This document shows, piece after piece, positions 875-59,484 of a DNA stretch of 64,000 bases. The translations under genes were made by a program, and so were the position numbers. Each line of letters starts with the position of its first letter. Position 1 is the stretch's first letter. The notes below the pieces were generated by a model. The model was not told the DNA's origin. It ran no database searches and worked only from the letters and a program-made list of their open reading frames with translations. Source of the DNA: a bacterium (GTDB lineage Bacteria; Patescibacteriota; Patescibacteriia; Magasanikbacterales; GWA2-37-8); contig JBDROJ010000030.1 of assembly GCA_043810165.1 (NCBI GenBank), positions 866 through 64,865 on the forward strand, in the 5' to 3' direction.

Positions 875-908
875 GACCCTCGGGCTTCGGCCTGGGGGTC
901 TTTGTTTT
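875..908 (+). terminator. Rho-independent terminator-like hairpin after the surface-protein gene
   Basis: aaaagaCCCTCGGGCttcgGCCTGGGGGTCtttgtttt: a GC-rich imperfect stem followed by a T-run. Confidence 0.5.
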
Positions 909-910
909 CT

Positions 911-1083
911 GTCATTGCAAGCGATTCACTGTCATTGCGAGGAAAACTCCTCCGCTCGCAATGACAATTATATTGACTTTTTAGGTAAAAAGCATTATAA
1001 TTTTTTTATGTCGTTGTGAATCTGTTCGTCAGAACAATCTTATCATTGCGAGGAGGAGCGAAGCGACGACGTGGCAATCTCGT
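911..1083. repeat. GTCATTGCGAG-family nested palindromic repeat (copy A, variant). It contains a promoter and an RBS that feed the GIY-YIG gene.
   Basis: gtcattgcaag(911), gtcattgcgagg(931), ctcgcaatgacaa(955) and atcattgcgaggaggagcgaagcgacgacgtggcaatctcgtgg(1042-1083). These share the core with copies at 1418, 22057, 26432, 35212, 40551, 55750, 57276 and 59304. Confidence 0.7.
973..1001 (+). promoter_or_regulatory. Near-consensus sigma70-type promoter inside the repeat element, upstream of the GIY-YIG gene
   Basis: TTGACT(973-978), a 17-nt spacer, then TATAAT(996-1001). An AGGAGG RBS follows at ~1088-1093, 9 nt before the ATG at 1103. Confidence 0.5.
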
Positions 1084-1102
1084 GGATTAAGGAGGGGTGA
1101 TT

Positions 1103-1408
1103 ATGAAAAAATACGAATACCATGTTTATATAATGACCAATAAACGTCATACCGTTTTATATACCGGAGTTACAGGTAATTTGTGTAGAAGGGGATTTGA
1201 GCACAAAAGTGGGGATAGCGATCATGAAAGTTTTACCAAAAGATACAATGTTTGTAAACTAGTTTATTATGAGAAATATGATGACATATACGATGCAATT
1301 GCTAGAGAAAAACAAATAAAAGCAGGTTCTAGAAAGAAAAAGATAGATTTGATACGCGGTATCAATCCACAGTGGGAAGATTTGTATGACGAGCTATTAC
1401 CTTTTTAA
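1103..1408 (+). CDS. Small stand-alone GIY-YIG nuclease (UPF0213/YhbQ-like)
   Basis: Motif YEYHVYIMTNKRHTVLYTGVTGNLCRRGFEHKSG matches the GIY-YIG core (Y..Y..YTG, R, E). About 100 aa. The ATG at 1103 is preferred over the GTG at 1097 because of the AGGAGG spacing. Confidence 0.7.
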   Translation: MKKYEYHVYIMTNKRHTVLYTGVTGNLCRRGFEHKSGDSDHESFTKRYNVCKLVYYEKYDDIYDAIAREKQIKAGSRKKKIDLIRGINPQWEDLYDELLPF

Positions 1409-1417
1409 GCTATATAC

Positions 1418-1570
1418 ATCATTGCGAGCGTAAGCGTGTTTGTCATTGCGAGGAGCGAAGCGACGAAGCAATCTCGTCTTTACAGAACCAACGAGATTGC
1501 GGAGTTTATCCTGAGCATAGCGAAGGACCTCTCGCAATGACAGGAACAGCACGCTTCTCGCAATGACAGG
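1418..1570. repeat. GTCATTGCGAG-family nested palindromic repeat (copy B)
   Basis: catcattgcgagcg, gtcattgcgaggagcgaagcgacgaagcaatctcgt, a central hairpin gcaatctcgtctttacagaaccaacgagattgc, then ctcgcaatgacagg twice. Confidence 0.8.
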
Positions 1571-1587
1571 AACAACAACAAAGTATT

Positions 1588-1659
1588 GGCCCGTTCGTCT
1601 AGTGGTTAGGACTTCGGCTTCTCAAGCCGGAAACAGGGGTTCAATTCCCCTACGGGCTA
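1588..1659 (+). tRNA. tRNA-Glu (anticodon CUC)
   Basis: Hand-folded cloverleaf. Acceptor GGCCCGT/ACGGGCT, D-stem GTCT/GGAC, anticodon stem TCGGC/GCCGG with loop TTCTCAA, T-arm AGGGG-TTCAATT-CCCCT, discriminator A. CCA is not encoded. Confidence 0.8.
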
Positions 1660-1669
1660 CAAATTTTAT

Positions 1670-1740
1670 TCGGGGATCGTCTAATGGTAGGACACCAGGT
1701 TCTGGTCCTGGGTATCGGGGTTCAAATCCTCGTCCCCGAG
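1670..1740 (+). tRNA. tRNA-Gln (anticodon CUG)
   Basis: Acceptor TCGGGGA/TCCCCGA, D-stem GTCT/GGAC, anticodon stem CCAGG/CCTGG with loop TTCTGGT, T-arm CGGGG-TTCAAAT-CCTCG, discriminator G. Confidence 0.8.
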
Positions 1741-3315
1741 CAAACAAGGATGAGCAGGCTCTAACAGGCCTGTTTTCCTGTAAGTAGAGCCATTTTTCAG
1801 GAGTTCTGAAGTTGCGTTTAGCTTGGGCATCCACTCAGAAAGAAAAGCAAAAGATTCTGTATATTCAACATTCAATTTTCCCTCAGTATTGATTGTCATT
1901 TCCTTGAAAATTCGTTGTATAAGGATTCTTTTTTCGTCAGTGGTAGCTTTTCTGCTGTTATACTTTTCTCGGGCTGTAAACGCCAAATTATGTATCTCAA
2001 CGCCTATCTTATAGAAGTTTCTAACCCTTTTATTTAACTTTTTTAGCTTGTCAGTGATTTCTTTTTGTTGTTTTGTAAATAGCTTAAATTTCTTATTATA
2101 ATATTCTTCGGATATTTTCTTATCCAATTTATCGTCATACATTGAATCTAGTCTATTTTCTAGTTTCTCAAATTCTTTATTAAGAGATTCTCTCGTCATT
2201 TTAGTATAGTCTTTTTTACCTTTTTTACTTTTTTTTAAAACATTTGTTATCCAATCCAAAACCTCCTTATTTAAAGGTTTTATTTTTTTCATCATTTCAT
2301 TTAATTTTTCCTCAATCTTTTCTTCTTTAATATATCCTTTACGGGAACACTCTTTATAACCACGGCAAGAGCCGTAATGGTGGCCTTTTTGTGTTTGCCA
2401 ACTAATAAGACAACCACACTCCTCACAACGGATTAAGCCTTTAAAAGTATGAAATTTTTTTCTATATTGTCCCGCTTTAAGTGGTCGGTCTAATTGTGAT
2501 TGAACTTTGTTAAATAAAGTTTCACTTACTATCGGTTCTTGTTTTCCTTTGTATTCTTCATTATTCCAAATAATATATCCGCAATAAAAAGGATCACGGA
2601 GTAAACGATGTACGACAGAATTCATTACTCTTTTACCATTAACACTTCTAAAACCGTCTTTATATAATTTTTCGGCTATTCTTTTGACAGTATAATTTCC
2701 TGTACTATAAAGCTTAAAAGCTTCTTTTATATAAGGGGTTACTTTAGTATCTTGTATATGGGTCTTATGTCCTTTTTCGCCGGTGGTAATATAACCAAAC
2801 TTATTTCCACAAGGTATCCAACCAGATTCAATTTTTGCTTTTTGTCCTTTTTTAACTTCCTCGCTTAAATTATTTGTATAGAACCGTGCAATAGCGACTT
2901 TCATATCCCAAACTAAATTTTCATGAGCCCTTGTGTTTCTACTTACAACAAAGTTTTCTTTTACAAAATGAACCTCTCTTTTTTCATCGCCATTTACCCA
3001 ATCACTAATAACAGCACCGTCTTTCAAGTTTCTTGTTAAACGATCTATTTTTTCACAAAGAATAAGATTAATTTTTCTTTTCTTAACATAGCCTAGCATT
3101 TCATTAAAAGTTTTTCTTATCTGTTTACCACTCGCACTTTCAGAAATTTTAAATATTTTAGAAATCACAAGATCATTTCGCATAGCATAACTACGCAAAA
3201 GTTTTTCTTGTGCTTCTAGAGAATACCCTCGGTCTTCCTGTTCTTTGCTTGAAACACGACAGTATAAAATACATCGATTGTCTTTTTCTTTTTCCATATT
3301 ATTTTTTGTTATCAT
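1681..3315 (-). CDS. Large serine recombinase (integrase) with N-terminal resolvase domain, recombinase domain, zinc ribbon and coiled coil. Its 3' end overlaps tRNA-Gln by ~60 nt.
   Basis: N-terminal CILYCRVSSKEQ (catalytic Ser of the resolvase fold) and ...DRLTRN. The zinc-ribbon CEECGC...HYGSC is followed by a Lys/Glu-rich coiled coil. The 544-aa size fits the large-serine-recombinase class. Position next to a tRNA is the classic integration signature. Confidence 0.85.
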   Translation of the reverse strand: MITKNNMEKEKDNRCILYCRVSSKEQEDRGYSLEAQEKLLRSYAMRNDLVISKIFKISESASGKQIRKTFNEMLGYVKKRKINLILCEKIDRLTRNLKDGAVISDWVNGDEKREVHFVKENFVVSRNTRAHENLVWDMKVAIARFYTNNLSEEVKKGQKAKIESGWIPCGNKFGYITTGEKGHKTHIQDTKVTPYIKEAFKLYSTGNYTVKRIAEKLYKDGFRSVNGKRVMNSVVHRLLRDPFYCGYIIWNNEEYKGKQEPIVSETLFNKVQSQLDRPLKAGQYRKKFHTFKGLIRCEECGCLISWQTQKGHHYGSCRGYKECSRKGYIKEEKIEEKLNEMMKKIKPLNKEVLDWITNVLKKSKKGKKDYTKMTRESLNKEFEKLENRLDSMYDDKLDKKISEEYYNKKFKLFTKQQKEITDKLKKLNKRVRNFYKIGVEIHNLAFTAREKYNSRKATTDEKRILIQRIFKEMTINTEGKLNVEYTESFAFLSEWMPKLNATSELLKNGSTYRKTGLLEPAHPCLLGDEDLNPDTQDQNLVSYH

Positions 3316-3466
3316 CTTGCATATTTTTTATACGCAATTCTTTAAGTATGGAGAAATAATCAACTAAGCCATTTGCTATTTCGGAAGCATTTTTAAAAGT
3401 TAATTCTTCCCCGTATTCCTCCTTTACAATTTGTTGAAATTCTTTGATTGATTCTTCGCTAAGCAT
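3299..3466 (-). CDS. Small hypothetical protein (~55 aa), paralog of 3634..3798. Possible regulator or recombination-directionality factor.
   Basis: The track ORF 3299..3520 trimmed to the internal Met MLSEESIKEFQQIVKEEYGEELTFKNASEIANGLVDYF. It aligns with MISEQDILKLQDIIKRNYGVELSFEETSKVANDWIAVF encoded at 3634..3798. Confidence 0.4.
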   Translation of the reverse strand: MLSEESIKEFQQIVKEEYGEELTFKNASEIANGLVDYFSILKELRIKNMQDDNKK

Positions 3467-3633
3467 ATAATTATATTTAAATACAAAAAGGGACGGTCGT
3501 TGCTTACCCAATTCAAACACTCAAAGAGTATTTTTATCGGAACGAACCGCCCCTTTCTGGCGACAAAATAATAAACTCCTTGAGTTAATTATTGAATTGA
3601 GTAAGCATATAAATTATAACACAAAACGGAATT

Positions 3634-3798
3634 TAATCAATTTTTTTCAAATTTCTCTCTGTAATCAATTTCAGCCAATACTTCAAAAACAGCAATCCAA
3701 TCATTTGCCACTTTTGAGGTTTCTTCAAAACTTAATTCAACACCATAGTTTCTTTTTATAATGTCTTGAAGTTTTAGGATGTCTTGTTCGCTTATCAT
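3634..3798 (-). CDS. Small hypothetical protein (~55 aa), not in the ORF track. Its start codon overlaps the Rep stop (ATGA).
   Basis: Manual translation of the minus strand gives MISEQDILKLQDIIKRNYGVELSFEETSKVANDWIAVFEVLAEIDYREKFEKN. It is paralogous to the 3299..3466 product. The Rep TGA and this ATG share bases, which implies translational coupling. Confidence 0.4.
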
Positions 3799-4577
3799 AT
3801 TGGCTTGAATAAGAGCGAACGATTAAGCACGCCGGTTTTAAATATTAGATCATCTAATCTGTATGCTTTATATTCAACTTCGCCGACCCACTCACTCTCA
3901 AAAGTTTTTTCAAAAGACGGTGTAAGTAAAGACAAAAACCTTTCAATAAATTTAGTGGCAAGCCAGCCCAATATTTCAATTGGATCTTTGAGTGTTTGTG
4001 AACGAAAGAATTTCTTTTTTCCAAAAGTTCTTTCGTCAAACATATCTTTACTAAGATATTTACAAACATAAGCCCCGATGTTGTCTACATCTTTTAAAGT
4101 TTTAATGTCTATATTTCCATGTCCCCAAGTTTCGTGTATCACACTAAAGTGAATAAAAGGCATATCACAAAGCAAGTGATAGTGAACTGCACCACGCTTT
4201 TGAAATTCGGGAATGGCTAAATATCTAAAATTAGGATATTTATAAGTCATCCTTTTTATAAACTGATTAAATAGATAATTAGCTTGTTTAAGATCTGTGA
4301 TGTTCTCGGCAAAGGTTAAAGTCATAAATTTGGTTAATTGCGGATTTGAGTTTATCAACCGTCGTATTTCTGTTCGTGTTCGATTGACTGAATATAATTG
4401 TTTTTGCTGTTGTTTTTTTATTCTTTCGAATATATCTAATTGTTTCGGCTCTTCATGAGTTTTTTCTTTTACGCTTTCTTGCGTCCTTTCAAAGTCCCGC
4501 CAGACGTTTTTCTTGTACTTGTAAACTTCAACATACTTGCCCGACACCACAACTCTTGTGTTGTAGGTAAAGGCCAT
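3795..4577 (-). CDS. Rolling-circle replication initiator (HUH endonuclease, Rep_trans/gpII-like)
   Basis: HUH motif GAVHYHLLCDMPF and a downstream catalytic-Tyr motif GAYVCKYLSKD (YxxK). About 260 aa, as expected for phage or plasmid RCR Rep proteins. Confidence 0.7.
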   Translation of the reverse strand: MAFTYNTRVVVSGKYVEVYKYKKNVWRDFERTQESVKEKTHEEPKQLDIFERIKKQQQKQLYSVNRTRTEIRRLINSNPQLTKFMTLTFAENITDLKQANYLFNQFIKRMTYKYPNFRYLAIPEFQKRGAVHYHLLCDMPFIHFSVIHETWGHGNIDIKTLKDVDNIGAYVCKYLSKDMFDERTFGKKKFFRSQTLKDPIEILGWLATKFIERFLSLLTPSFEKTFESEWVGEVEYKAYRLDDLIFKTGVLNRSLLFKPI

Positions 4578-5235: not shown

Positions 5236-5934
5236 CTACTTTTTTTGCTGTTTATGATACGGAGGGATGTTTTCATCCTTTGGAAGTAGTCCAGTATTGT
5301 CGTTTGAGTGTTCTTTAATATATTCTCGGTAATATGGAAATTCAGGGTACTTAATAAAGTTCACGGCTTCGTGCGTGTTGTAGCAATTGGCTTTAGTTTT
5401 GTTAAACAAAAATAATTTACGCTTTACCGCTCGTCGTCTTAGGTTGTCATCTTTTAAATCTTGCAATTCAAAATATGAAGCCATAAAGATAAAACGAAAT
5501 AGGTTTTTAACTTCTAAAAAGTGTTGTCCTAAATCTCGTATTCTTTTATCTATATTGCTTGTGTGTTGAACCCCTGCCCAAATATCAAGCGGGATAATAT
5601 TACCGTCTTTGTCTTTTTTAACATCATGTCTATGGGCGGAAAATTTTTGTTTTGCACTCGGAGGCATTTCTTGCCACTCACGAGAATCAAAATATCCCTG
5701 TGCCTCATCAATAAAAATCTGTCCGCCTTTGATAGATAACAGTTCGGGAATTTCAGACCAAAAATATACTTTACCTAAGTTTTCTTTTTTAAGTTTTTTC
5801 TTTTCTATGTATCCGCTAAAGTCTAGCTTCCAATTTGCATATACATCATAACCTTTCAAAAACATTTCAAGTGCCTTGTAAGTCATAAACAAAGTTTTGC
5901 CAGCTCCGGGTTTTCCTGTGATAATTGTGATCAT
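5236..5934 (-). CDS. Zot/pI-like P-loop ATPase (filamentous-phage assembly protein)
   Basis: N-terminal Walker A MITIITGKPGAGKTLFMTY and IFIDEAQ (Walker B-like). The Zot family is the hallmark inovirus morphogenesis ATPase. Position after pIII/pVI is as in the Ff phages. Confidence 0.65.
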   Translation of the reverse strand: MITIITGKPGAGKTLFMTYKALEMFLKGYDVYANWKLDFSGYIEKKKLKKENLGKVYFWSEIPELLSIKGGQIFIDEAQGYFDSREWQEMPPSAKQKFSAHRHDVKKDKDGNIIPLDIWAGVQHTSNIDKRIRDLGQHFLEVKNLFRFIFMASYFELQDLKDDNLRRRAVKRKLFLFNKTKANCYNTHEAVNFIKYPEFPYYREYIKEHSNDNTGLLPKDENIPPYHKQQKK

Positions 5935-10292: not shown

Positions 10293-12209
10293 ATGGTAAA
10301 TTTTAAAGACAAATTAGAAAATCTATTAAAGAAAGAAAAAGATTTTTTAGATGAAAATGGTGTTATTGATTATATTAAAATAAAAGACTTAGCAGATAAG
10401 ATTGATAGTAGATTAATAGAACTTTTGATTACAAATAATGAAATAAAGAAAAAGTTTTTTTCAAAAATAAAAGATGTTTATGTTTTTAACATCAATCATT
10501 TTAAATTTTTCTTAGATGAAAATAAAGTAAATAATTCATACACTCAATATAAAAATAGAATTGGTTTATCCGACGGAAAAGAATTTATAAATGATAGAAA
10601 TGATACTGTTTTAGATTTTCCTTTTAAGGATTGTATATTGGAAGGTGGACAAAGCACAGAAGAAGGCATTGATACTTATTTTGAATATTCTGATAAAACT
10701 GAAAAATATGAAGAAAAGACAGCAAAAAGAAATGAAGTATTCTTTAATCAAGTACTTGCACATGATGAAATAGATAGACTTTGTGATAGAAAAGCTCTTG
10801 TAAATTGGAAACGATTTACTAAAGATAGCAAGAAAGATGGTGAAATTGTAAAAGAAATAAAACGAGATAAAAAAGGTTTAATACAAGAGAATTTAATTAT
10901 AAAAGGTAATAACTTACTTGCTTTACATAGTCTAAAATCTGAATTTGCAGGGAATATAAAACTTATTTATATTGATCCTCCTTATAATACAAAAACAGAC
11001 AGTTTTGTTTATAATGATAACTTTAATCATAGTACATGGCTAACCTTTATGAAAAACAGGTTGGAGTTAGCTAATGAATTATTAAGGGATGACGGAATAC
11101 TTTTTGTGCAATGTGATGATAATGAACAATCTTATTTAAAAGTATTAATGGATGAAATATTTGATAGGGAAAATTTTGTAGGAACCTTGATTCATCAAAG
11201 AGCAAAAGGAGGCGGAAATGCAAAACATATCGTAAAAGGACATGATTATATTACCATCTTTGCAAAAAAACTAAGTAAAAACCATAAATTTATTAGAGAA
11301 AAAGTCATTCAAGCAAAAGTCATTGAAATAGATGGTGTTTTCTACTTAAGAAATGATGATGTTGTTAGAAAAGTTTTTGGTAAATATGATACATCTTTAG
11401 GAGATAGAAGATGTTTTTATGAAGAACTTGAAAAATATAAAAATGAAAAACAAATTAAAGAAATCAAAGAAAAAATTAAAAATAAAGATTATGTTTTAGA
11501 AAACTTTGGTAATGGAATGCAAGTGATAGTAAAATATACACCCATAGAAGAATCCTATTCAAAGTTGTATTCAATAGTCAAAGCATTATCTGAAGATGGT
11601 AATAATGAAATAAGTGAGCTTGGATTAGATTTTAGTAATCCAAAACCAGAACAAATTATAAAATTTTTAATTGAAGCGGTTACTAAACCTACAGATATTG
11701 TTTTAGATTATCATCTTGGATCAGGAACTACCTGTGCAGTTGCTCACAAAATGAATAGACAATATATTGGGATTGAACAAATGGATTATATTGAAACTGT
11801 TGCTGTAGAAAGAATGAAAAAAGTTATTAAAGGTGAACAAGGAGGAATTTCAAAATCAGTTGATTGGAAAGGTGGTGGCGAATTTATTTATTGTGAGCTT
11901 GCAAAATGGAACGAACAAGCAAAAGAAGAAATACAAAACGTAAAAGATTTATCTGCTTTCGTAAAGCTCTTTGATACTTTGTATAAAAAATATTTCCTAA
12001 ATTACAATGTTAAAATTAAGGATTTTAAAGAAAATATAATGAAAGAAGAAAACTTTAAAAAACTTACTCTTATACAACAAAAGAAAATGTTTTTGGCTAT
12101 GCTTGATTTAAATCAAATGTATGTTAATGAAAGCGAAATGGCAGATAAAAAATATGGGATTAGCGTTGAAGATCAAAAACTAACAAATACTTTCTATAGT
12201 AAAAAATAA
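10293..12209 (+). CDS. mod: Type III restriction-modification methyltransferase (Mod), N6-adenine beta-class
   Basis: Motif IV IYIDPPYN comes before motif I DYHLGSGTT. That order defines beta-class N6A/N4C MTases. 638 aa. Directly followed by a Res-type helicase. Confidence 0.8.
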   Translation: MVNFKDKLENLLKKEKDFLDENGVIDYIKIKDLADKIDSRLIELLITNNEIKKKFFSKIKDVYVFNINHFKFFLDENKVNNSYTQYKNRIGLSDGKEFINDRNDTVLDFPFKDCILEGGQSTEEGIDTYFEYSDKTEKYEEKTAKRNEVFFNQVLAHDEIDRLCDRKALVNWKRFTKDSKKDGEIVKEIKRDKKGLIQENLIIKGNNLLALHSLKSEFAGNIKLIYIDPPYNTKTDSFVYNDNFNHSTWLTFMKNRLELANELLRDDGILFVQCDDNEQSYLKVLMDEIFDRENFVGTLIHQRAKGGGNAKHIVKGHDYITIFAKKLSKNHKFIREKVIQAKVIEIDGVFYLRNDDVVRKVFGKYDTSLGDRRCFYEELEKYKNEKQIKEIKEKIKNKDYVLENFGNGMQVIVKYTPIEESYSKLYSIVKALSEDGNNEISELGLDFSNPKPEQIIKFLIEAVTKPTDIVLDYHLGSGTTCAVAHKMNRQYIGIEQMDYIETVAVERMKKVIKGEQGGISKSVDWKGGGEFIYCELAKWNEQAKEEIQNVKDLSAFVKLFDTLYKKYFLNYNVKIKDFKENIMKEENFKKLTLIQQKKMFLAMLDLNQMYVNESEMADKKYGISVEDQKLTNTFYSKK

Positions 12210-12210
12210 T

Positions 12211-14958
12211 ATGGAAGAATTGTATCAACAAATAAATACAGAAAAAAATACACTTAAAAAATATGCTCCGGAAGTCATTGAGATTCCTAAATATATTTTA
12301 AATAATATTAAATATGATTTATTTGAGTGGCAAAAAGAAGCATTGGAAAATTTTTTTGTGTATGAAAAAGATCATAAACAAAACCCCACCCATTTAATGT
12401 TTAATATGGCTACGGGAACAGGTAAAACCTTAGTCATGGCCTCTCTTATTTTGTTTTATTATCAAAAAGGTTATAGAAATTTTATATTTTTTGTAAATCA
12501 AAATAATATTGTGGATAAAACAGAAAATAATTTTATTAATAATACTCACAATAAATATTTATTTACAGATAAAATTACTATTGACGGGAAAATTATAAAT
12601 ATTAAAAAAGTTAATAACTTTTCTGACAATTCTTCTGACATACAAATAAAATTTACTACCATACAAAAACTATACAATGATATACATTTAGAAAAAGAAA
12701 ACAATATTACATTGGAAGAACTTTATAAAAAAGATATTATAATGTTAGCTGATGAAGCACATCATCTTAATACAAATACAAACAAAAAGCAGAAAGAGTT
12801 AGATCTAAATTTGGAATTAAAAGATAATGCAAGCAAAGAAGATATTGAAAGAAAAGGCTGGGAACATACCGTTATTGAATTGATTTTAAAAAAGAATGGA
12901 AAAGAAAGTAATAATATTTTATTAGAGTTTACTGCGACTATTCCGACAGAGCCTAATGTTGTAAAAAAATATAAAGATAAGACAATTTATAAATTTAGTC
13001 TAAAAGATTTTTTAAAGAAAGGTTATACAAAAGAAATCAATTTGATTGGTTCAACCTTTAGTAAAAAAGAAAGAATTTTACATGCCTTGCTTTTTAATTG
13101 GTATAGACATGAAGTTGCTTTAAAAAACAATATACATAATTTTAAACCTGTTATCCTTTTCAGAAGTAAAACTATTGAAGAATCAGAAAAAGATTATCAA
13201 GTTTTTTTGAATTTGATAAATAATTTAAATATTAAAGATTTTGCATTTTTTAATAAAATAAAAGATAAAATTACAGAAAACGATAATCCCTATGAACAAG
13301 GAAGATCTCGCACAGAAGATGTTTTAAATTTTGTAGAAAATACAAAAGGTAGATATTCTGAAGTGGTAAATTTTATAAAAGAAAATTTTCAAGAAAAAAA
13401 CTTGATAATTACTAACTCAAAAGATAAAGATGCTAAAGGTGAAAAAGGCGGTGAAAAAACAACAGAAAAACAGAATGATCTTCTAAATAATTTAGAAGAT
13501 ATAAATAATCACATAAGAGGTATTTTTACAGTAAAACGATTAACAGAGGGTTGGGATGTATTAAATTTGTTTGACATAGTCCGTCTTTATAAGGGGCAGA
13601 ATGTTGGAGGAACACACAAAGGAAAAACACCCGAAACGACAATACAAGAAAAGCAATTAATTGGTAGAGGTGTTAGATATTGTCCTTTTACTTACAAAGA
13701 TGAACAAAGAAATAAAAGAAAGTTTAATAATAATTTGAAAAATGAGCTAAGAGTATTGGAAGAACTTTATTATTATACTTACGATGACCCAAACAATAAA
13801 GCAGAACACAACTATATTATAGAATTGAAAGCCGAACTAAGAAAAGACGGCTATATTGATGATAATAAAATTGTTAAAAAATTTGACTTAAAAAAAGAAT
13901 TTAAAGATATTCCTTTTTATAAAAAAATTAAAATTTGGAAAAATAATCAAATTGACAATCCAGATAGACAAAAAGAAAACTTGAATACTTTAGCTAAAGA
14001 TTTTTTTAGCTCATATACAATTAGTGGTATTTCTTTGTCAGAAGACTGGATGAAAAATTTAGATGATGAAGATGAAATGCAAAGATTAATCTTATCAGAA
14101 CAAAATTTAAAAGTAATTAATGATAAAACTTTTAAAGATTTTGAATATAATATCTTTAGAAAAGCGATACACATAAAATCACAAAAGGAAAATTCTTTTT
14201 ATAGATTTGATAATTTGAAAGATAATTTGAAAATAAATAGTATAGATGATTTGTTAGGAAAAGATTTTTTTGGTTCTTTTAAAATTAATATTATTGTAGA
14301 AAAGAAAACAAATTTTGAAGATATTGATAATGAAGAAAAATTAAAGATTATTTCTAAATTTCTTAATGATATTGAAAATAAACTTAAATCATATATAAAA
14401 CCAAAGATAGGAACGCCTGAATTTAAAGCTTATAAATTTTCAGATATTTTTGATAAACCTAAAACAAAAAGCGTTGATAAAAAAACAGTAGAAGATTCAG
14501 AAAATTTAGCTGATGTGTTAAAAAATGAAGAATGGTATATTTTGAATGATTTTGTTGGTACTGATCAAGAAATAGAGCTTATTAAATTTATACAAGAAAG
14601 AGTTGGTAATTTAGATGAAAAGTATAAAGAATATTATCTTTTAAGAAATGAAGAAGTTTATAAAATATATGACTTTGAAGAAGGTCGTGGATTTCAGCCG
14701 GATTTCTTATTGTTTTTAAAAGGCAAAAAAGACAAAGTTTACTATCAAATTTTTATTGAACCAAAACAAAAAAAATACATGACTTCGGAAAATGAAATAT
14801 GGAAAGAAAATTTCTTAGAGCAAATTAGTGAAAAATTTGGAGATAAAAAAATATTAAAGGAAGAAAATGAAAATTATAAATTATTTGGGTTGCCTTTCTT
14901 TAATAATGAAGAGGAATATAGAAATAATTTTGAAGAAAACTTTGGTAAATTAATTTAA
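12211..14958 (+). CDS. res: Type III restriction enzyme Res subunit (SF2 helicase plus endonuclease)
   Basis: Walker A MATGTGKT and DEAH box IIMLADEAHHLN. 915 aa. Starts 2 nt after the mod stop. Confidence 0.8.
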   Translation: MEELYQQINTEKNTLKKYAPEVIEIPKYILNNIKYDLFEWQKEALENFFVYEKDHKQNPTHLMFNMATGTGKTLVMASLILFYYQKGYRNFIFFVNQNNIVDKTENNFINNTHNKYLFTDKITIDGKIINIKKVNNFSDNSSDIQIKFTTIQKLYNDIHLEKENNITLEELYKKDIIMLADEAHHLNTNTNKKQKELDLNLELKDNASKEDIERKGWEHTVIELILKKNGKESNNILLEFTATIPTEPNVVKKYKDKTIYKFSLKDFLKKGYTKEINLIGSTFSKKERILHALLFNWYRHEVALKNNIHNFKPVILFRSKTIEESEKDYQVFLNLINNLNIKDFAFFNKIKDKITENDNPYEQGRSRTEDVLNFVENTKGRYSEVVNFIKENFQEKNLIITNSKDKDAKGEKGGEKTTEKQNDLLNNLEDINNHIRGIFTVKRLTEGWDVLNLFDIVRLYKGQNVGGTHKGKTPETTIQEKQLIGRGVRYCPFTYKDEQRNKRKFNNNLKNELRVLEELYYYTYDDPNNKAEHNYIIELKAELRKDGYIDDNKIVKKFDLKKEFKDIPFYKKIKIWKNNQIDNPDRQKENLNTLAKDFFSSYTISGISLSEDWMKNLDDEDEMQRLILSEQNLKVINDKTFKDFEYNIFRKAIHIKSQKENSFYRFDNLKDNLKINSIDDLLGKDFFGSFKINIIVEKKTNFEDIDNEEKLKIISKFLNDIENKLKSYIKPKIGTPEFKAYKFSDIFDKPKTKSVDKKTVEDSENLADVLKNEEWYILNDFVGTDQEIELIKFIQERVGNLDEKYKEYYLLRNEEVYKIYDFEEGRGFQPDFLLFLKGKKDKVYYQIFIEPKQKKYMTSENEIWKENFLEQISEKFGDKKILKEENENYKLFGLPFFNNEEEYRNNFEENFGKLI

Positions 14959-16868: not shown

Positions 16869-17072
16869 ATGCAATTTACCGATAAACAATTAGATAGTTT
16901 CATCGCTTTATATAAAAAAGAGTTTGGCGACGAATTAAGCAAAGGTGAGGCTCTCCAAAAAGCAACCTCTTTGGTTTCTATGGTAAAATTGACATATGTA
17001 CCCATGACAGAAAAAGATTTTAAAGAAAGTATGGAAGCTTGTATTAAAAGTCAAAAAACACAAATTAATTAA
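16869..17072 (+). CDS. Hypothetical 67-aa protein
   Basis: ORF track only. Confidence 0.25.
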   Translation: MQFTDKQLDSFIALYKKEFGDELSKGEALQKATSLVSMVKLTYVPMTEKDFKESMEACIKSQKTQIN

Positions 17073-18423
17073 AATTTAGCTCAACCTTGCTAAAAAAAGT
17101 TCTGAACCCGTCCGCGTATGCGAGCCAAGAGAGATTGAGCGAGGTCAAAGCCTCGTTTTTTCTTTTTGTTGAGCCAAAATCAAGCGGTTCTAACCCTCTC
17201 ATTTTAGCATTAAAATTTTGAGCGTTGTCGTAAATAGGAAGCAACCAATTATTGACTGTAATTAGCACTTTTTTGTCTTCAATTACTCGGTTCGAACCTA
17301 GATTATTAAGTACCTGTTTTTTCTTGGTGTTATCACCCTCTTTGAATTTTTTTAAAGCATAAGCAGAAAAAATAAACTTTTCTTTGGTCAGTTCAATAAT
17401 TTCTTCCTCGGTTTTTTGTTTGCTATCTTTACCATTAAATTTTTCAACTTGTTTTTTAAGATTGTTTTTTTCTTTCAAAAATTCGTCATCATCCAATAAT
17501 CCTCTGGCTCTCATCATAGTTAATTCAGATAAATTGCTTTCTAACTCTTTAACTTTATCATCTCGGCTATTATCAATTACTTTGTTTTCTTGTTTCACCT
17601 TACCTTTTTGTTTATCTAAATAATCTAAACTCCACTGTAAAAACAATGGGTGCATTTCTAATTTTTCCAGTTTTTTAGTAATATTTTTGGTTATTTCTTT
17701 TTCTTCCACTGATCCTTGTTTACAAACAATAGTTTTTTTCTTATGAGTACAGTGATAATAGTCATAACCTTTGACTTTATTTTTAGCCTTAATATATTTA
17801 GTATGATGTTCTGCTGTAATACCACAACCACAATAATTACATTTAAACATACCTGCATAAGTAAAGTCATGCTTTTTAGGCTTTCTTTTGCAACCTCGTT
17901 TGCCTAATATTTCTTGGATACGATTAAACTCATCTAAATTGAGCAATGGTTTATGCTTACCTTTGCTCTCAAGGCCATTATATACGTTTATACCAGCGTA
18001 AAAGGGGTTAGCTAGTATTTTATACCAACTAGACCGAGATAAAGCCTTACCGCCTGATTTTTTCTTTTTTCTCGTTATATATCCCCAGTCATTATTTAAT
18101 ATATTTAAAACCTCTTGAGCGGTATATGAATTTGTCAGCATTAAATCAAAAGCCTTTCTAAGTAAGACTGATCTTTTTTTATCAACAATAATAGTTCTTT
18201 GCCCTTTTTCTAGCCTAACATCATTCAAATACCCCTCGGGAGCAATACCAGGTCGCCAACCTAAAGATATTTTTTTCTCTAATCCACGTTTAACATCTTT
18301 ACCTAGTTTAGATGAAAAGTATTGAGATTGAGAAAGGGCTAATTGCAACATCATTATACCCTCGGGGGAATTATCAAAATTATATGAGGCAAACTTTAAA
18401 TCATGGATAATCCCTGTTCGCAC
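17065..18423 (-). pseudogene. 5'-truncated large serine recombinase (resolvase catalytic domain missing). The 3' end overlaps a tRNA-3'-like sequence.
   Basis: It contains the recombinase-domain zinc ribbon (CNYCGCGITAEHH...YYHCTHKK) and a coiled coil. The frame is closed immediately upstream of 18423, where the IS fragment starts. The C-terminus ...LSWLAYADGFRT is encoded over aGTTCTGAACCcgtccgcgtatgcgagCCA, which is T-loop-like. Confidence 0.65.
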
Positions 18424-18437: not shown

Positions 18438-19028
18438 TTGAAGTTTTATCTGGTGGCCATAATGGACTGGTATTCCAGATATGTCATAAGTTGGAAATTA
18501 TCATCTAGCTTAAAATCAGACTTTTGTATTGATTGTTTAAAACAAGCCTTAAAACTGGCTATACCAAATATTCACAATTCAGATCAAGGCGTTCAATTTA
18601 CGGACAAGGAATATATTGCTATACTACAATCAGAACCGACTATTAAAATCAGTATGGACGGGCGCGGGCGGTGCTTTGACAACATATTTACTGAAAGGCT
18701 TTGGCGGAACGTCAAATACGAAGAGGTCTATTTAAATGATTACGAGCCATTTGACGAGGCCAAGGAATCTTTAAATGATTATTTTCATAAATACAACTAC
18801 GAGCGCATTCATGAAAGTCTAAATTACCAAACTCCAGCTGAAGTGTATTTTAGACAAAAAAATCAAAAAAACAACAATGGACAAAAAAACGAAAGCCTAG
18901 AATGGCTTCTAAGCCCCGAGGCCGAAGCCAGACGATATCTGATGCCAAATAATCCAAAAGATTTTATTATTAATAACCAAATAATTCAATTAAATCCAAA
19001 GGTCGAGAAAATCACATTAAATTGTTAA
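18438..19028 (+). mobile_element. IS3-family transposase OrfB fragment (rve/DDE integrase core, N-terminally truncated; TTG start in the ORF track)
   Basis: HNSDQGVQFT ... ISMDGRGRCFDNIFTERLWRNVKYEEVYL ... YNYERIHESLNYQTPAEVY matches the IS3/rve catalytic core. The HTH or OrfA part and the first catalytic Asp are absent. It abuts the truncated recombinase. Confidence 0.7.
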
Positions 19029-21925: not shown

Positions 21926-22030
21926 ATTTTGCAGGTTAAGTTTTAAGTTAAATCATTATATCACAAAAAGTTTATTTAACAAAGTCTTTCGAATTGTCTT
22001 TCGAATTGACTTCCTATTCATGAAATTAAA

Positions 22031-22055
22031 AAAACCCACTTGGTGCGGGTTTTTA
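22031..22055 (-). terminator. Terminator-like hairpin downstream of the 1080-aa gene, abutting a repeat copy
   Basis: aaaaaCCCACttggtGCGGGttttt. Confidence 0.45.
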
Positions 22056-22056
22056 C

Positions 22057-35210: not shown

Positions 35211-35211
35211 T

Positions 35212-35337: not shown

Positions 35338-35353
35338 GGTTTTGGCAGTTTTG

Positions 35354-40553: not shown

Positions 40554-40587
40554 TTTAATGACAATGAACCCACCCTCGCAATGACGG
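40551..40587. repeat. GTCATTGCGAG-family repeat (half copy G)
   Basis: tgatttaatgacaatgaacccaccctcgcaatgacgg. Confidence 0.6.
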
Positions 40588-42777: not shown

Positions 42778-43617
42778 TTAGTTATTGTCCAATATATTGT
42801 CCAATAGAAAAAAGTTAATTTTATTGGAATTTAGCAAATGGGCTATGGTTTTTATGTAGGGTTTTAAGAAGTTCGAATCCCGGTGCCCGAGCCAAGAGAG
42901 ATTGAGCGAGGTTAAAGCCTCGTTTTTTCTTTTTGTTAAGCCAAAATTCAACGGTTCTAACCCTCTCATTTTAGCATTTAACTTTTGAGCGTTGTCATAA
43001 ATAGGAAGCAACCAATTATTGACTGTAATTAGCACTTTTTTGTCTTCAATTACTCGGTTCGAACCTAGATTATTAAGTACCTGTTTTTTCTTAGTTTTAT
43101 CACCGTCTTTAAACTTTTTCAGAGCATAAGCAGAAAAAATAAACTTTTCTTTAGTTAGTTCAATAATTTCTTCCTCGGTTTTTTGTTTACTATCTTTACT
43201 ATTAAATTTTTCAACTTGTTTTTTAAGATTCTTTTTTTCTTTCAAAAATTCGTCATCATCCAATAATCCTCTGGCTCTCATCATAGTTAATTCAGATAAA
43301 TTGCTTTCTAACTCTTTAACTTTATCATCTCGGCTATTATCAATTACTTTGTTTTCTTGTTTTGTTTTACTTTTTTGACTATCCAAATAATCCAAACTCC
43401 ACTGTAAAAATAGTGGGTGCATTTCTAACTTTTCCAGTTTTTTAGTAATATTTTTGGTTATCTCCTTTTCTTCTACTGATCCTTGTCTGCAAACAATAGT
43501 TTTTTTCTTATGGGTACAGTGGTAATAATCATAACCTTTAACTTTGTTTTTAGCCTTAATATATTTAGTATGATGTTCTGCTGTGATACCACAACCACAA
43601 TAATTACATTTAAACAT
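42778..43617 (-). pseudogene. Second truncated large-serine-recombinase fragment (C-terminal ~280 aa only). It is ~95% identical to 17080-17910 and ends in a tRNA-3'-like sequence.
   Basis: It starts at the zinc ribbon MFKCNYCGCGITAEHH. The nucleotide repeat spans 42880-43630. The C-terminus ...SWLGHRDSN is encoded over aGTTCGAATCCcggtgcccgagCCA (T-loop consensus GTTCGAATCC). Confidence 0.65.
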
Positions 43618-55636: not shown

Positions 55637-55749
55637 AGTTGAAATTATTGTAGCAAAAAATTGCGGTTTTGTATAGTTGTGCTATACTTTAAAATAATAG
55701 AATTCATACTAAGTTTTTTAAATTAGTGGATATAGATAATAGGCATCTC

Positions 55750-55866
55750 TGTCATTGCGAGCGTAGCGAAGCAATCTCGTTATTACTAGAACCAACGAGA
55801 TTGCCGTGTCGTCGCTCCGCTCCTCCTCGCAATGACAATGTTATCACACTTCTCGCAATGACAGAT
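55750..55866. repeat. GTCATTGCGAG-family nested palindromic repeat (full copy H)
   Basis: gtcattgcgagcgtagcGAAGCAATCTCGTTattactagaaccAACGAGATTGCcgtgtcgtcgctccgctcctcctcgcaatgacaatgttatcacacttctcgcaatgac. Confidence 0.85.
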
Positions 55867-55880
55867 CTGACTAATTTAAG

Positions 55881-57272: not shown

Positions 57273-57275
57273 GTC

Positions 57276-57325
57276 ATTGTGAATATGCAGGCCTGCCTAG
57301 CGGGCAGGCTACTCCTAGCGATAGC
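57276..57325. repeat. GTCATTG...GCCTGCCtagcGGGCAGGC... repeat variant (copy E)
   Basis: aagtcattgtgaatatgcaggcctgcctagcgggcaggctactcctagcgatagc. It shares the hairpin with copy D at 26450-26470. Confidence 0.6.
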
Positions 57326-57439
57326 AAGAACACCTATTAAGAATCGTCCAAGAATCAAGTCGGGCGATTTTTTTGTTAATTAGATTTAATTACCAAAATC
57401 TGTGGATAACTGTGGCTATTTGTGTTTGACCAGGATGGA

Positions 57440-57482
57440 GAAGTGGTGTAAAATGGATTGTAGTGGGGAAAGGTGGGGAATT
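57440..57482 (+). promoter_or_regulatory. Candidate MraZ operator: direct GTGG(G/T)G repeats upstream of mraZ
   Basis: GTGGTGtaaaatggattgtaGTGGGGaaagGTGGGGaattt. The last two boxes are spaced 10 nt. MraZ is known to bind tandem TGGGN repeats in its own promoter. Confidence 0.45.
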
Positions 57483-57526
57483 TTTAGAAAAACCTCAAAA
57501 TTTTTCCAGTTGTTTAAGCTCTATAC

Positions 57527-57958
57527 ATGTTCATCGGTGAATATAGCCACAACCTAGACAATAAAGGAAGGCTGGCCATACCAGTCAAATTTAGGCGTGA
57601 TTTGGCTAAAGGAGCCGTGGTCACACACGGACTTGATAAGTGCTTGTTTTTATACACTGGAACAGAATGGCAAGTACTGGCCGAAAAGCTAGCTGGCTTG
57701 CCGTTTAGCCAGGCCAAAGCCAGGGCATTTGCCCGCCTAATGCTGGCCGGCGCAATGGATGTAAAATTGGACAAGCAAGGTCGGATCATATTGCCTGAAT
57801 ATTTGCGCAGGTTCGCAGGTTTAAAGAAAAATACAATAGTAGCTGGATTATTCAACCGCTTGGAAATCTGGGATGATGAAATATGGAATAACTATAAAAC
57901 TAAAACCGAGAAACAAAGCAGTGAAATAGCGGAAAGAATGGGGGAGTTAGGAATCTAG
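57527..57958 (+). CDS. mraZ: Transcriptional regulator MraZ
   Basis: MFIGEYSHNLDNKGRLAIP and a second DxxGR repeat LDKQGRIILP. 143 aa. Confidence 0.9.
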   Translation: MFIGEYSHNLDNKGRLAIPVKFRRDLAKGAVVTHGLDKCLFLYTGTEWQVLAEKLAGLPFSQAKARAFARLMLAGAMDVKLDKQGRIILPEYLRRFAGLKKNTIVAGLFNRLEIWDDEIWNNYKTKTEKQSSEIAERMGELGI

Positions 57959-57961
57959 AAT

Positions 57962-58858
57962 ATGAAGCATGAACCTGTACTATTACAACAAGTGATTAGC
58001 AACTTGCAGTTAAAGCCCGGCATGAACGTGGTTGACTGTACCTTGGGCGACGGCGGACATGCCCGTGCTATTTTAGAAAAATTAGGTAAAAAAGGAAAAT
58101 TATTGGGAATTGATGCTGATGTAGAAGCTGTTTTAAGAGCAAAAAGGTTTTTATATGAATTTGAGGATCGATTTATTGCAGTCAGAGATAACTTCGTTAA
58201 TTTAAAAAAAATTGTCCATGGCCAGGACTTTGGTCAGGTGAATGCGATATTGATGGATCTGGGCTGGTCTAGCCAGCAGTTTTCGGAAAGAGACCGCGGA
58301 TTCAGTTTTCAAAATCAAGATGAGGTGCTGGACATGCGTTATGATGTTAATTCAGAGAAAACCGCTCAGAGCGTGCTAAATAATTATTCAAATGAAGATC
58401 TGTCAAATGTGTTAAGGCGTTATGGCGAAGAAAAGTTTTATCAAGATATTGCTGATAATATAGTTATCCACAGAAAAAAACAAACAATTGAAAAAGTAGG
58501 ACAATTAGTAGAAATTATTTTACAGGTATATAGAGAAAAATTAAATACAGACAAGGATATTCCGTATCTGGGCCATATTCATCCGGCCACTAAAGTTTTC
58601 CAAGCCTTGCGCATTGAAGTCAATGACGAGCTTGAAGCATTAAGACAAGCATTGCCTCAAGCATTGGATATATTGGCTCCGGAAGGGCGCCTGGCAGTCA
58701 TAAGCTTTCACTCTTTGGAAGATCGAATTGTCAAACGATTTTTTCAAAAACAGAAAGATGCCAAAATTATAACTAAAAAACCAATTACCGCTTCATTCCA
58801 GGAAGTTAAGAAAAATCCTAGATCCAGAAGCGCCAAATTAAGAATTTTACAAGTATAA
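57962..58858 (+). CDS. rsmH: 16S rRNA (cytosine1402-N4)-methyltransferase RsmH
   Basis: HEPVLL...VDCTLGDGGHA...LGIDAD are RsmH signatures. It follows mraZ. Confidence 0.9.
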   Translation: MKHEPVLLQQVISNLQLKPGMNVVDCTLGDGGHARAILEKLGKKGKLLGIDADVEAVLRAKRFLYEFEDRFIAVRDNFVNLKKIVHGQDFGQVNAILMDLGWSSQQFSERDRGFSFQNQDEVLDMRYDVNSEKTAQSVLNNYSNEDLSNVLRRYGEEKFYQDIADNIVIHRKKQTIEKVGQLVEIILQVYREKLNTDKDIPYLGHIHPATKVFQALRIEVNDELEALRQALPQALDILAPEGRLAVISFHSLEDRIVKRFFQKQKDAKIITKKPITASFQEVKKNPRSRSAKLRILQV

Positions 58859-58862
58859 ACCT

Positions 58863-59222
58863 ATGTCCTTTAAACGCAAAGTACAAATGCAATATCGCTA
58901 TTTTATTCAGTCTTTGTTTTCTTTCCGCTTGCCAAGTTGGCTAAGTTGCATGGCCACGCGCGTGGTTTTGCTTTTAATTATAATTTTATTTGGCTCTGCA
59001 TATATTGTTAAGACTGCTACCACGGCTTCCAGCGGATATAAAATTCAGGACTTGGAAAAGCAAGTTTATGCTTTGCATGAAGACATAACAAGATTGGAAG
59101 TTAATTTGGCAGATTATAGTTCGATGGCCAGTATTCAAGAGCGATTAACAGGCAGTAATATGGTAGTGGTAAGTGAAGTTAAATACCATGATTCGGACAG
59201 GCAAACAGTAACTAAAAAATAA
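58863..59222 (+). CDS. ftsL: Cell division protein FtsL (small bitopic coiled-coil protein)
   Basis: 119 aa. One TM VVLLLIIILFGSAYIV, then a coiled coil. It sits at the ftsL position of the dcw cluster. Confidence 0.6.
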   Translation: MSFKRKVQMQYRYFIQSLFSFRLPSWLSCMATRVVLLLIIILFGSAYIVKTATTASSGYKIQDLEKQVYALHEDITRLEVNLADYSSMASIQERLTGSNMVVVSEVKYHDSDRQTVTKK

Positions 59223-59303
59223 AAGCAAAACAATTAATACGCAACTCTCTTGATGAGAGTTTTTTTATTGTGAATAAATTATTTTTAGTGTATAATATAG
59301 TAT

Positions 59304-59429
59304 GTAATTGCGAGCGCAAGTGTTGCTGTCATTGCGAGCGTAGCCAAGCAATCTCGTCGGTTCTAGTAATAACGAGTTTGCTTCGTCGCTCCGCTCCTCG
59401 CAATGACAGTGAACCGCTCGCAATGACAG
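59304..59429. repeat. GTCATTGCGAG-family nested palindromic repeat (full copy I, central loop inverted)
   Basis: gtaattgcgagcgcaagtgttgctgtcattgcgagcgtagccaAGCAATCTCGTcggttctagtaataACGAGtTTGCTtcgtcgctccgctcctcgcaatgacagtgaaccgctcgcaatgac. Confidence 0.85.
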
Positions 59430-59484
59430 AGAAAGTTAGGCTAAATTAATATAATTATTTAATAAATTATTTAATTAAAATTTT

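Follow-up and report, generated by a model that had tools for sequence, protein, structure and literature searches.

The systems closest to the locus treated here are built around the Ssn family described in 2025 (CDD cd10448), GIY-YIG proteins with a single domain and a length of about 94 amino acids whose genes are flanked by hairpin repeats, the "Ssn-related motifs" (SRM), of the form GTC-palindrome-C (Chenal et al., 2025, Nat Commun 16:2388, PMC11893778). In Neisseria the SRM are the NTS, CGTCATTCCCGCGMAVGCGGGAATCYRG, a subset of the dRS3 repeats; purified SsnA binds the hairpin as single-stranded DNA (ssDNA) only, cuts a few nucleotides upstream of it, and is inactive on duplex DNA, on RNA (which it does not bind) and on the reverse strand (Chenal et al., 2025). 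Cutting depends most on the GTC before the palindrome and binding most on the C just after it, mutation of Y6, Y17 and E64 abolishes cleavage by the N. meningitidis enzyme, and in N. meningitidis SsnA reduces transformation with DNA that carries NTS (Chenal et al., 2025). That study points to a layout like that of insertion sequences (IS) and of REP/RAYT systems (REP, repetitive extragenic palindrome), mobility not being demonstrated there. Our literature search found no later Ssn papers, and a full-text search for the box sequences described below returned unrelated PCR primers only.

Here we analyse a stretch of 64,000 nt (hereafter the window) from a metagenome-assembled genome (MAG) of a Magasanikbacteria-like member of the Patescibacteria (assembly GCA_043810165.1, contig JBDROJ010000030.1, positions 866 to 64,865), which carries a dispersed family of palindromic repeats and, at 1103-1408, a small GIY-YIG gene. 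On the comparative evidence set out below, the repeats are most likely SRM, the cognate ssDNA recognition sites of the Ssn-family GIY-YIG endonuclease predicted at 1103-1408, and the locus represents a putative member of the Ssn/SRM system whose repeat variant lies outside the published search pattern. This class assignment rests on homology to a Neisseria gonorrhoeae locus, the repeat-gene-repeat layout, the recognition features of the repeats, covariation in their stems and their lineage-specific gain.

The gene at 1103-1408 is the sole copy of the nuclease gene in the window and is preceded by a good ribosome-binding site. Its product of 101 amino acids matches Pfam PF01541 over residues 6-80 (E 5e-13), with no other domain found; comparison with PDB, NCBIfam, PADLOC and PHROGs gave no match. 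When the protein was searched by tblastn against a 7.3-Gb plasmid collection, it recovered an NTS-flanked ssnA-like locus of N. gonorrhoeae (E 9e-14, 40% identity, 91% coverage), and in pairwise BLASTP it aligned end-to-end with the translation of that locus (E 3e-23 over 92 residues). The homology criterion of Chenal et al. (2025) is a tblastn E < 1e-10, and the value obtained here lies below it, with the search direction reversed and a gonorrhoeae rather than a meningitidis sequence as the partner. Residues Y9, Y20 and E69 align, via the N. gonorrhoeae translation, with the positions counted as equivalent to Y6, Y17 and E64 of N. meningitidis SsnA. Within 3.3 kb, the N. gonorrhoeae locus itself matches the published SRM pattern eight times, once immediately behind the stop codon. 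The plasmid collection includes two complete N. gonorrhoeae chromosomes (2.17 Mb) filed as plasmids, and the locus lies at 1880219-1883488 of NZ_CP119142.1; there the frame of the conserved protein lacks a start codon upstream of the GIY motif, a nearby ATG stands in another frame, and this gonococcal ssnA-like copy may be disrupted.

The repeats form a real and well-defined dispersed palindromic family. Allowing at most one mismatch, the 11-mer GTCATTGCGAG ("A box") has 24 matches on both strands of the whole window where 0.49 are expected, the highest count among 100 dinucleotide-preserving shuffles being 3; the boxes are spread over ten or eleven loci and are accompanied by a second box, GAAGCAATCTCG ("B box"). 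A match at 50479 lies within a gene and was set aside as a chance match rather than a copy of the family. The copies listed in a first-pass annotation of this DNA, made from the sequence alone, are all present at the positions it gave, and its description of them as intergenic holds as well, every copy lying outside the 62 non-overlapping predicted open reading frames (ORFs) that make up about 87% of the window. It had placed the copies mostly at gene 3' ends or between convergent genes, which is true of most, the copy at 55751 (between divergent genes) and the unit at 1042 (in the leader of the nuclease gene) being exceptions. The repeats are densest around the nuclease gene, which has a unit upstream (1042-1082) and a mosaic downstream (1418-1567), in addition to eight or nine further loci in the window. 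The GIY-YIG protein had been named as one possible partner of the repeats, a suggestion borne out by this flanking on both sides and by the relationship of the protein to Ssn.

Reading the copies on both strands reduces the family to one basic module, an oriented hairpin of 30-50 nt with the form YGTC-ATTGC-GAG-(variable apical mini-hairpin)-GAA-GCAAT-CYNG. Its parts are Y-GTC, a basal stem of 5 bp (ATTGC/GCAAT), a purine-rich internal loop (GAG...GAA), the variable apical mini-hairpin and C-Y-N-G; the consensus within the window is Y-GTC-ATTGC-GAG-(variable insert)-GAA-GCAAT-C-T-C-G. The insert has a long form, GAGCGAAGCGAC or GAGCGGAGCGAC, and a short form, CGTAGC or CGTAAGC, and in the unit at 26437-26487 it reads GCCTGCCCgctaGGCAGGC; GCGAAGC is an unusually stable DNA mini-hairpin. 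Units are found singly, as inverted doublets and as larger mosaics. What had been termed a full copy consists of a unit on the + strand, a spacer of 12-13 nt and a unit on the - strand, with outer A boxes 20-26 nt outside each side, and the "perfect inner hairpin" described earlier is formed by two B boxes facing each other. That hairpin is perfect in the copy at 35212 only, its right arm or loop differing in the copies at 1418, 55751 and 59304, and the two left boxes ascribed to each full copy are reduced to one at 55751. An inverted loop at 59304 had been taken to mean that the loop flips or that the element inserts in both orientations. Comparison of the copies points to inversion of the whole element: 71 nt of this copy are 96% complementary to 35230-35300 and the long and short half-units also swap sides, so that a flipping loop is needless, the 59304 copy being the 35212 copy inverted as a whole.

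The half-unit running from the A box to the B box carries the features on which recognition by SsnA depends. GTC is present in every box, the stem starts with ATT and ends with AAT as in NTS, a pyrimidine precedes GTC in 230 of 251 units, and the base after the stem is a C in 10 of the 12 units of the window and in 36 of 40 units at loci selected independently of the DNA pattern. Over all fetched loci the variable positions of the basal stem read TGC/GCA (233), TAC/GTA (8), TCT/AGA (8), CCT/AGG (5) or CGC/GCG (4), with others besides, each variant type occurring in one to six independent loci; at the Balneolaceae locus introduced below, the left units have ATTAC...GTAAT and the right units ATTGC...GCAAT. 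Two-sided changes were counted in 58 cells (150 distinct unit ends) against 14 +/- 3.2 in shuffles, none of 500 of which reached 58; the covariation score was 0.25 versus 0.10, all slid registers scoring lower. The basal stem is part of the minimum-energy DNA fold in 149 of 183 distinct units, and the apical inserts fold as diverse small hairpins. This comparative evidence supports pairing within the half-unit as the putative recognition structure.

Folded as single-stranded DNA, the whole elements are far more stable than expected from their composition. We obtained a dG of -48.1 kcal/mol (z -10.6) for 35205-35345, -38.4 (z -7.6) for 1430-1575, -38.1 (z -7.2) for 59298-59435 and -28.6 (z -6.1) for 55745-55870, the range over whole elements being -28.6 to -48.5 kcal/mol with z from -6.1 to -10.6 and none of 200 shuffles as good; the DNA folding proposed in the first-pass annotation thus yields very stable hairpins. 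The same annotation regarded each element as one long imperfect palindrome, a description that suits the whole-element fold and fails for the basic unit, which is the oriented half-unit. As a homologue of the Neisseria motif, too, we dropped the palindrome pairing A with A' across the element in favour of the A...B half-unit, because of the cross-phylum covariation (ATTAC/GTAAT in left units beside ATTGC/GCAAT in right units at the Balneolaceae locus) and the conserved C after GCAAT.

Several observations weigh against the assignment to the Ssn/SRM system. The published pattern, HGTCWYN(0-2)YYVSBRHN(0-5)WNVSBRGN(0-2)RNCYNB, has no match in the window or on the elements of the four homologue loci described below, while the same script finds the eight matches in the Neisseria locus; it fails because the stem reads TGCGAG and is not the pyrimidine-rich YYVSBR. 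Isolated half-units from the window are weak hairpins (-2.5 to -3.7 kcal/mol, nearest-neighbour DNA) that fold no better than shuffles, and the far more stable long A/A' hairpin of the doublets would pair the GTC, unlike the Neisseria substrate. GCAAT is followed by G instead of C in the symmetric hairpin 931-965 (on either strand) and in the unit 26437-26487. Finally, the nuclease gene is found in only two of 120 repeat-bearing 8-kb genome stretches among the matches listed in the distribution search given below, which lends no extra support, although it is expected for dispersed repeats; with the gene in two of the 120, the repeats would be mostly dispersed away from it, as in Neisseria.

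The layout recurs around homologues of the nuclease gene in distant hosts. At four homologue loci (L001-L004) from four phyla (a cyanobacterium and MAGs of Anaerolineales, Balneolaceae and Ignavibacteriae; genomic GC 40-54%), hairpins stand on both sides of the gene in all four cases, beginning TGTCATTGCGAG...GAAGCAATC and ending ...GATTGCTTC...CTCGCAATGAC. Units of the type GTCATTGCGAG...GAAGCAATC also flank ssn in a Planctomycetota MAG (L049), at locus L121 and on a viral contig of 29.5 kb from IMG/VR (L250), where the arrangement is doublet-unit-gene-doublet-doublet (2820-3480). Repeats flank the GIY-YIG gene in eight of nine ssn loci examined, and over these nine loci boxes are found at 4.76 per kb up to 600 nt from the gene and at 0.24 per kb beyond. 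A second IMG/VR contig (L251) has an ssn match at 3001-3273 with 48% identity, around which 3 kb in each direction are free of GTCATTGCGAG-type boxes; its ssn may use yet another repeat variant. On a plasmid of Planktothrix agardhii (NZ_LR882964.1, 18847-19131) an ssn homologue with 56% identity lies between an MmeI-type restriction-modification gene and the DISARM gene drmA, a defence-island context, and is flanked by a third box variant, GTCATTCTGAG, in tandem downstream of the gene.

To survey the distribution of the repeat itself, the pattern GTCATTGCGAG-N(8-30)-GAAGCAATC was searched in a collection of species-representative genomes and in the viral collection IMG/VR. At least 120 genome stretches match, and more than 15 phyla are represented among the matches listed: these include Alpha- and Gammaproteobacteria (many of them Bradyrhizobium), Chloroflexota, Cyanobacteria, Bacteroidota and Patescibacteria, as well as Zixibacteria, Planctomycetota, Omnitrophota, Desulfobacterota, Armatimonadota, Spirochaetota, Helicobacter, Latescibacterota, Ignavibacteriota and Myxococcota. 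The same unit pattern occurs on many contigs catalogued as viral (at least the IMG/VR entries L130-L249). Convergent box pairs with a distance of 60-90 nt are the most frequent arrangement across phyla, and the doublets of the window agree with this.

The history of the gene and that of its host appear to differ. The closest relatives of the nuclease protein, at 60-71% identity, come from distant lineages (Uhrbacteria, a cyanobacterium, Anaerolineales, Ignavibacteriae, Bacteroidota, KSB3 and Balneolaceae), whereas the best matches of the CTP synthase (PyrG) encoded in the window, at 75-86% identity, are almost all from Patescibacteria and especially from Candidatus Magasanikbacteria. Sequence comparison therefore indicates that the nuclease gene moves horizontally. 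Neither of the two window proteins has a recorded counterpart of identical sequence, and none of the loci fetched for comparison belongs to the genome of the window. The elements, for their part, are a gain of this lineage. The order L9 - pyrG - sugar transferase (convergent) - subtilase - epimerase - GT2 - DUF2304 is common to three relatives, with PyrG identities of 86, 82 and 80%. The spacer between pyrG and the transferase gene measures 28 nt in one relative (L127) and 40 nt in another (L129), with no element in either, and 143 nt in the window, of which the element makes up about 125 nt; the GT2 and DUF2304 genes are 84 nt apart in the window, with a remnant unit between them, and 16-18 nt apart in L128 and L129. 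No A boxes were found in 49 kb of the syntenic relatives. Since the relatives have short empty sites and no boxes, the elements were acquired after the lineages split. No direct repeats that could represent a target-site duplication and no conserved target were seen at the element ends of the window copies read, and with the closest relatives at 80-86% PyrG identity their intergenic DNA is not alignable.

By homology with N. meningitidis SsnA and its NTS, we propose that the hairpin would form when the DNA becomes single-stranded, be it during replication, repair, DNA uptake or infection by an ssDNA phage, and that the small monomeric nuclease would then bind the stem and the C just 3' of it and cut the same strand a few nucleotides 5' of the GTC, ignoring duplex DNA, RNA and the reverse strand. 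Such cuts could fragment or process repeat-bearing ssDNA and might thereby modulate the recombination of incoming DNA, while the cassette of gene plus repeats may act as a horizontally moving selfish unit that seeds repeats.

The individual copies show how the module has been combined. The first is a small mosaic at 911-965, directly preceded by a terminator-like hairpin (872-903) and made of an outer A box on the + strand (911-921, GTCATTGCAAG) and the symmetric single hairpin 931-965, GTCATTGCGAG-GAaaacTCCTCCG-CTCGCAATGAC; the 911-965 element folds with a dG of -13.6 (z -3.4). The region 911-1083, once counted as a single partial copy, does contain repeats, in two pieces (911-965 and 1042-1082) with an AT-rich promoter-like stretch between them. 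Upstream of the nuclease gene a promoter-like site on the + strand, TTGACT-17 nt-TATAAT at 973-1001, agrees with the consensus at 11 of 12 positions, a prediction from the consensus match alone. The piece at 1042-1082 is a complete + unit, ATC-ATTGC-GAG-GAGGAGCGAAGCGACGAC-GTG-GCAAT-CTCG, located directly upstream of the AAGGAGG ribosome-binding site of the nuclease gene (1103-1408, +), and it is 88% complementary to the minus-strand unit 55795-55836. Directly 3' of the gene, the full mosaic 1418-1567 has an outer box (1418-1428) and a unit (1442-1476) on the + strand and continues on the - strand with a unit (1491-1541) and an outer box (1557-1567). In the minus-strand unit of this mosaic, the 30-nt insert contains a segment (1505-1530) that resembles a decayed + unit of another stem type, ATCCT/AGGA (TTTATCCTGAGCATAGCGAAGGACCTC), and thus represents a unit within a unit.

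Farther along, a half copy at 22056-22108 is confined to the minus strand, where a complete unit (22056-22085) is joined by an outer box (22098-22108). Next on the same strand is a terminator-like hairpin that has a T run, and 33 nt of the copy are identical to 35285-35317. The variant single unit at 26437-26487 (-) has the apical hairpin GCCTGCC-tagc-GGGCAGGC, and both of its ends read GTCATTGC / GCAATGA. A variant unit absent from the first-pass list is found at 32029-32056 (+), between the stop codon of a Band-7 gene and an intrinsic-terminator-like palindrome with flanking T and A runs at about 32057-32090; it reads TGTC-ATCC-CGAG...A-GGAT-CT (TGTCATCCCGAG...AAGGATCT), and its stem type resembles the CCT/AGG variants of other phyla. 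The unit suggests that this genome has had a second repeat subfamily. The full mosaic between the convergent pyrG and sugar transferase genes (35212-35336) has, on the + strand, an outer box (35212) and a long unit (35235-35269) and, 12 nt of spacer further on, a short unit (35286-35315) and a second outer box (35326) on the - strand. What stands between GT2 and DUF2304 is a remnant (40551-40587, -), with one A box at 40575-40585 and degenerate sequence downstream. The mosaic between divergent genes at 55751-55862 has a short unit on the + strand (55751-55779); past a spacer, a long unit (55795-55836) and an outer box (55852-55862) follow on the - strand. A decayed copy of the 26437-type variant at 57273-57324 (+) has kept the GCCTGCCtagcGGGCAGGC core and has both end boxes degenerate, the identity within this 26437/57273 repeat family being 85%. 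The last full mosaic, 59304-59427, in the opposite orientation to 35212-35336, is made of an outer box, a short unit at 59328-59356 (+), a spacer, a long unit at 59373-59407 (-) and an outer box.

The acquisition of elements at sites that are empty in relatives also bears on a different emphasis, namely that the doublets are non-autonomous elements of the REPIN or MITE type (MITE, miniature inverted-repeat transposable element), actively copied or moved by the GIY-YIG nuclease through cleavage of ssDNA hairpins, their main function being their own propagation and effects on the host coming second. The reading shares ground with the assignment to the Ssn/SRM system, from which it differs by claiming active mobilisation; we consider it possible, if doubtful. 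The empty orthologous sites, which make MITE-like mobility plausible, go together with near-identical dispersed copies even in parts expected to be unconstrained: three copies have the 12-nt spacer ATTACTAGAACC in common, a 33-nt stretch is 100% identical in one pair of loci and a 71-nt stretch 96% complementary in another pair. Both orientations of the element are present, inverted doublets with a distance of 60-90 nt dominate across phyla, the motif is present on many viral contigs, and the genes around the cassette are unrelated from phylum to phylum (at L004, for example, it lies between two ABC permease genes); an IS-like layout was also noted by the 2025 authors (PMC11893778). Against mobilisation, neither a target-site duplication nor a conserved target is visible at the element ends, many copies are decayed or partial, and the closest relative, at 86% PyrG identity, is too distant for the mapping of insertion boundaries. 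Furthermore, GIY-YIG enzymes are hydrolytic nucleases, for which we know of no strand-transfer or covalent-intermediate chemistry, and copying would therefore need a repair or recombination step of the host.

A more far-reaching version, which we hold to be rather unlikely, would be that the GTCATTGCGAG/GAAGCAATC doublets and the nuclease constitute one highly successful, horizontally spreading selfish element, in which a hydrolytic GIY-YIG ssDNA nuclease drives the copying of REPIN-like doublets into intergenic sites. If this were true, it would amount to a mobilisation route distinct from HUH, DDE and recombinase transposition that has spread to more than 15 phyla, to bacteria of the candidate phyla radiation and to viral contigs, and the published motif search would have missed a whole lineage of elements.

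The position of most copies at gene 3' ends or between convergent genes, and the great stability of the predicted hairpins, would suit repeats acting mainly at the RNA level, as terminators, attenuators or stabilisers of mRNA 3' ends, as proposed for classical REP, with an incidental link to the nuclease. We regard this as improbable. SsnA of Neisseria does not bind RNA (PMC11893778), and the GTC and C flanks and the boxes are identical across more than 15 phyla among the matches listed while the neighbouring genes differ, an indication that a mobile protein recognises them. The hairpins lack a following T run: a scan of 800-1800 places terminator-like sites next to the elements but on none of them, and elsewhere the element ends read on into mixed sequence. 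Separate terminator-like hairpins at 872-903 and about 22025-22050 and the palindrome at about 32057-32090 adjoin the 911, 22056 and 32029 copies, respectively, the 55751 copy stands between divergent gene starts and the unit at 1042 lies in a 5' leader. A search of the window against Rfam, at gathering thresholds and at E <= 1, found two tRNAs and two chance miRNA matches, with nothing for the repeats. The range of identities first proposed for the family (MITE- or REP-like element, terminator or insulator, small RNA) can accordingly be narrowed: REP-like comes closest, while the lack of a T tract speaks against a terminator and the lack of an Rfam match against a small RNA.

Classical REP/BIME repeats maintained by a RAYT (an IS200-like HUH tyrosine transposase) encoded elsewhere in the genome would share the short extragenic palindromes, alternating orientation and BIME-like mosaics, and are nevertheless a most improbable explanation, given that the search for such a partner recommended in the first-pass annotation found no Y1 transposase (PF01797-type) among the approximately 60 window ORFs scanned, that the repeats flank a GIY-YIG gene and not a RAYT in eight of nine loci, and that the GTAG or CGTC tetranucleotide conserved, to our knowledge, in REP superfamilies is absent from the unit ends.

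The ssn cassette adjoins an integrated inovirus-like element of the ssDNA, filamentous-phage type (1670-8100), which encodes a large serine recombinase (1684-3315, -) whose end overlaps a tRNA-Gln, a rolling-circle replication initiator (3798-4577; PF23343, phrog_3419) and a Zot/pI-like assembly ATPase (5239-5934). A link of the repeats to this prophage or to its serine recombinase was considered and rejected, no boxes being found inside the island; the position of a gene for an ssDNA-specific nuclease beside an ssDNA prophage may be a coincidence. Next come the genes of a type III restriction-modification pair (Mod 10293-12206, Res 12211-14955), in an island with a GC content of 24-30% versus about 36% elsewhere. 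A direct repeat of 300 nt with 94% identity (17121-17420 and 42888-43187) lies inside serine-recombinase-like gene fragments (17068-18423 and 42781-43617, both -), the first of which has an rve integrase fragment (18438-19025) and a Pif1-like helicase gene (19095-20780) beside it. At the far end, a + frame has no stop from 59818 up to the window's end (1394 codons or more) and the short ORFs listed there have no Pfam hits; a very large gene probably runs off the window from this point.

These observations place the dense repeat family of a small-genome Patescibacteria MAG in a system characterised only in 2025. New here are a repeat variant that had been missed, the modular structure of the unit, its occurrence on viral contigs and in the genome of a member of the Patescibacteria, and comparative evidence of gain. 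The variant missed by the published motif is widespread, the same 20 specified bases occurring in Proteobacteria, Bacteroidota, Cyanobacteria, Chloroflexota, Patescibacteria, Planctomycetota, others and viral contigs. We presume that such repeats lie behind many of the spurious short "hypothetical proteins" with recurring peptide motifs in metagenome annotations. The nuclease and its repeats also provide a candidate pair of enzyme and site for ssDNA-cutting tools, with a putative recognition hairpin that is longer and modular and has a freely varying apical part. With empty orthologous sites on the one hand and cross-phylum protein similarity on the other, this is a good system for asking whether Ssn cassettes are mobile, and what role an ssDNA-specific nuclease plays in bacteria thought to depend on DNA uptake.

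Compared with known systems, the window repeats and their nuclease share features with several. GIY-YIG homing endonucleases such as I-TevI have the same catalytic domain and a similarly selfish-element-like distribution; they have DNA-binding domains in addition to it, act on duplex DNA at a single long target and occur in introns or free-standing, whereas the window protein has no more than the nuclease domain and, as its putative sites, short dispersed hairpins. MITEs such as the Correia elements are likewise short (about 120-150 bp), palindromic, intergenic, present in both orientations and lineage-specific. The window elements differ from these in their modular build from one hairpin unit and in having neither terminal inverted repeats matching an IS with a DDE transposase nor a target-site duplication; no DDE transposase carrying the repeat ends was found in the window, the only DDE sequence seen being the unrelated rve fragment at 18438-19025. 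With the IS200/IS605 family the system has in common an enzyme recognising (here putatively) subterminal ssDNA hairpins and cutting a short distance away, as well as a gene placed between hairpin ends, but the catalytic family differs, and no asymmetry of left and right ends with a defined target tetranucleotide was found here. REP/BIME-RAYT systems and REPINs are closer: extragenic palindromes that form ssDNA hairpins, an inverted doublet as the apparent replicating unit, an enzyme gene between its own repeats and the lack of target-site duplication are common to both, the differences being the hydrolytic GIY-YIG nuclease here in place of an HUH/Y1 transposase and the absence of a RAYT from the window. 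In addition, the cross-phylum spread seen here appears horizontal, while REPIN-RAYT systems are described as mostly vertically inherited.

The dRS3/NIME arrays of Neisseria are mosaics of alternating inverted repeats with short spacers, clustered between genes, and resemble the window elements in all of this, the differences lying in sequence and host. It is from these dRS3 repeats that the NTS subset is drawn (PMC11893778), and it is SsnA with its NTS that forms the closest match overall. The host here is a Magasanikbacteria-like member of the Patescibacteria, a phylum absent from the main text of the 2025 study (PMC11893778), and the system is known in it from sequence alone; its unit of 30-50 nt, with ATTGC...GCAAT, an internal loop and a variable apical hairpin, contrasts with the simple 28-nt ATTCCCGCG/CGCGGGAAT hairpin of Neisseria. 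Shared between the two are a single-domain GIY-YIG protein of about 95-100 amino acids, 40% identical to the product of the N. gonorrhoeae locus and with the catalytic residues kept, and oriented hairpin repeats on both sides of its gene that read GTC, then a palindrome of the type ATT...AAT, then C-Y. Further repeats are dispersed outside the predicted ORFs in both cases, often as convergent pairs, with a spacing of 81 nt in the N. gonorrhoeae locus and of 60-90 nt here and in other phyla.

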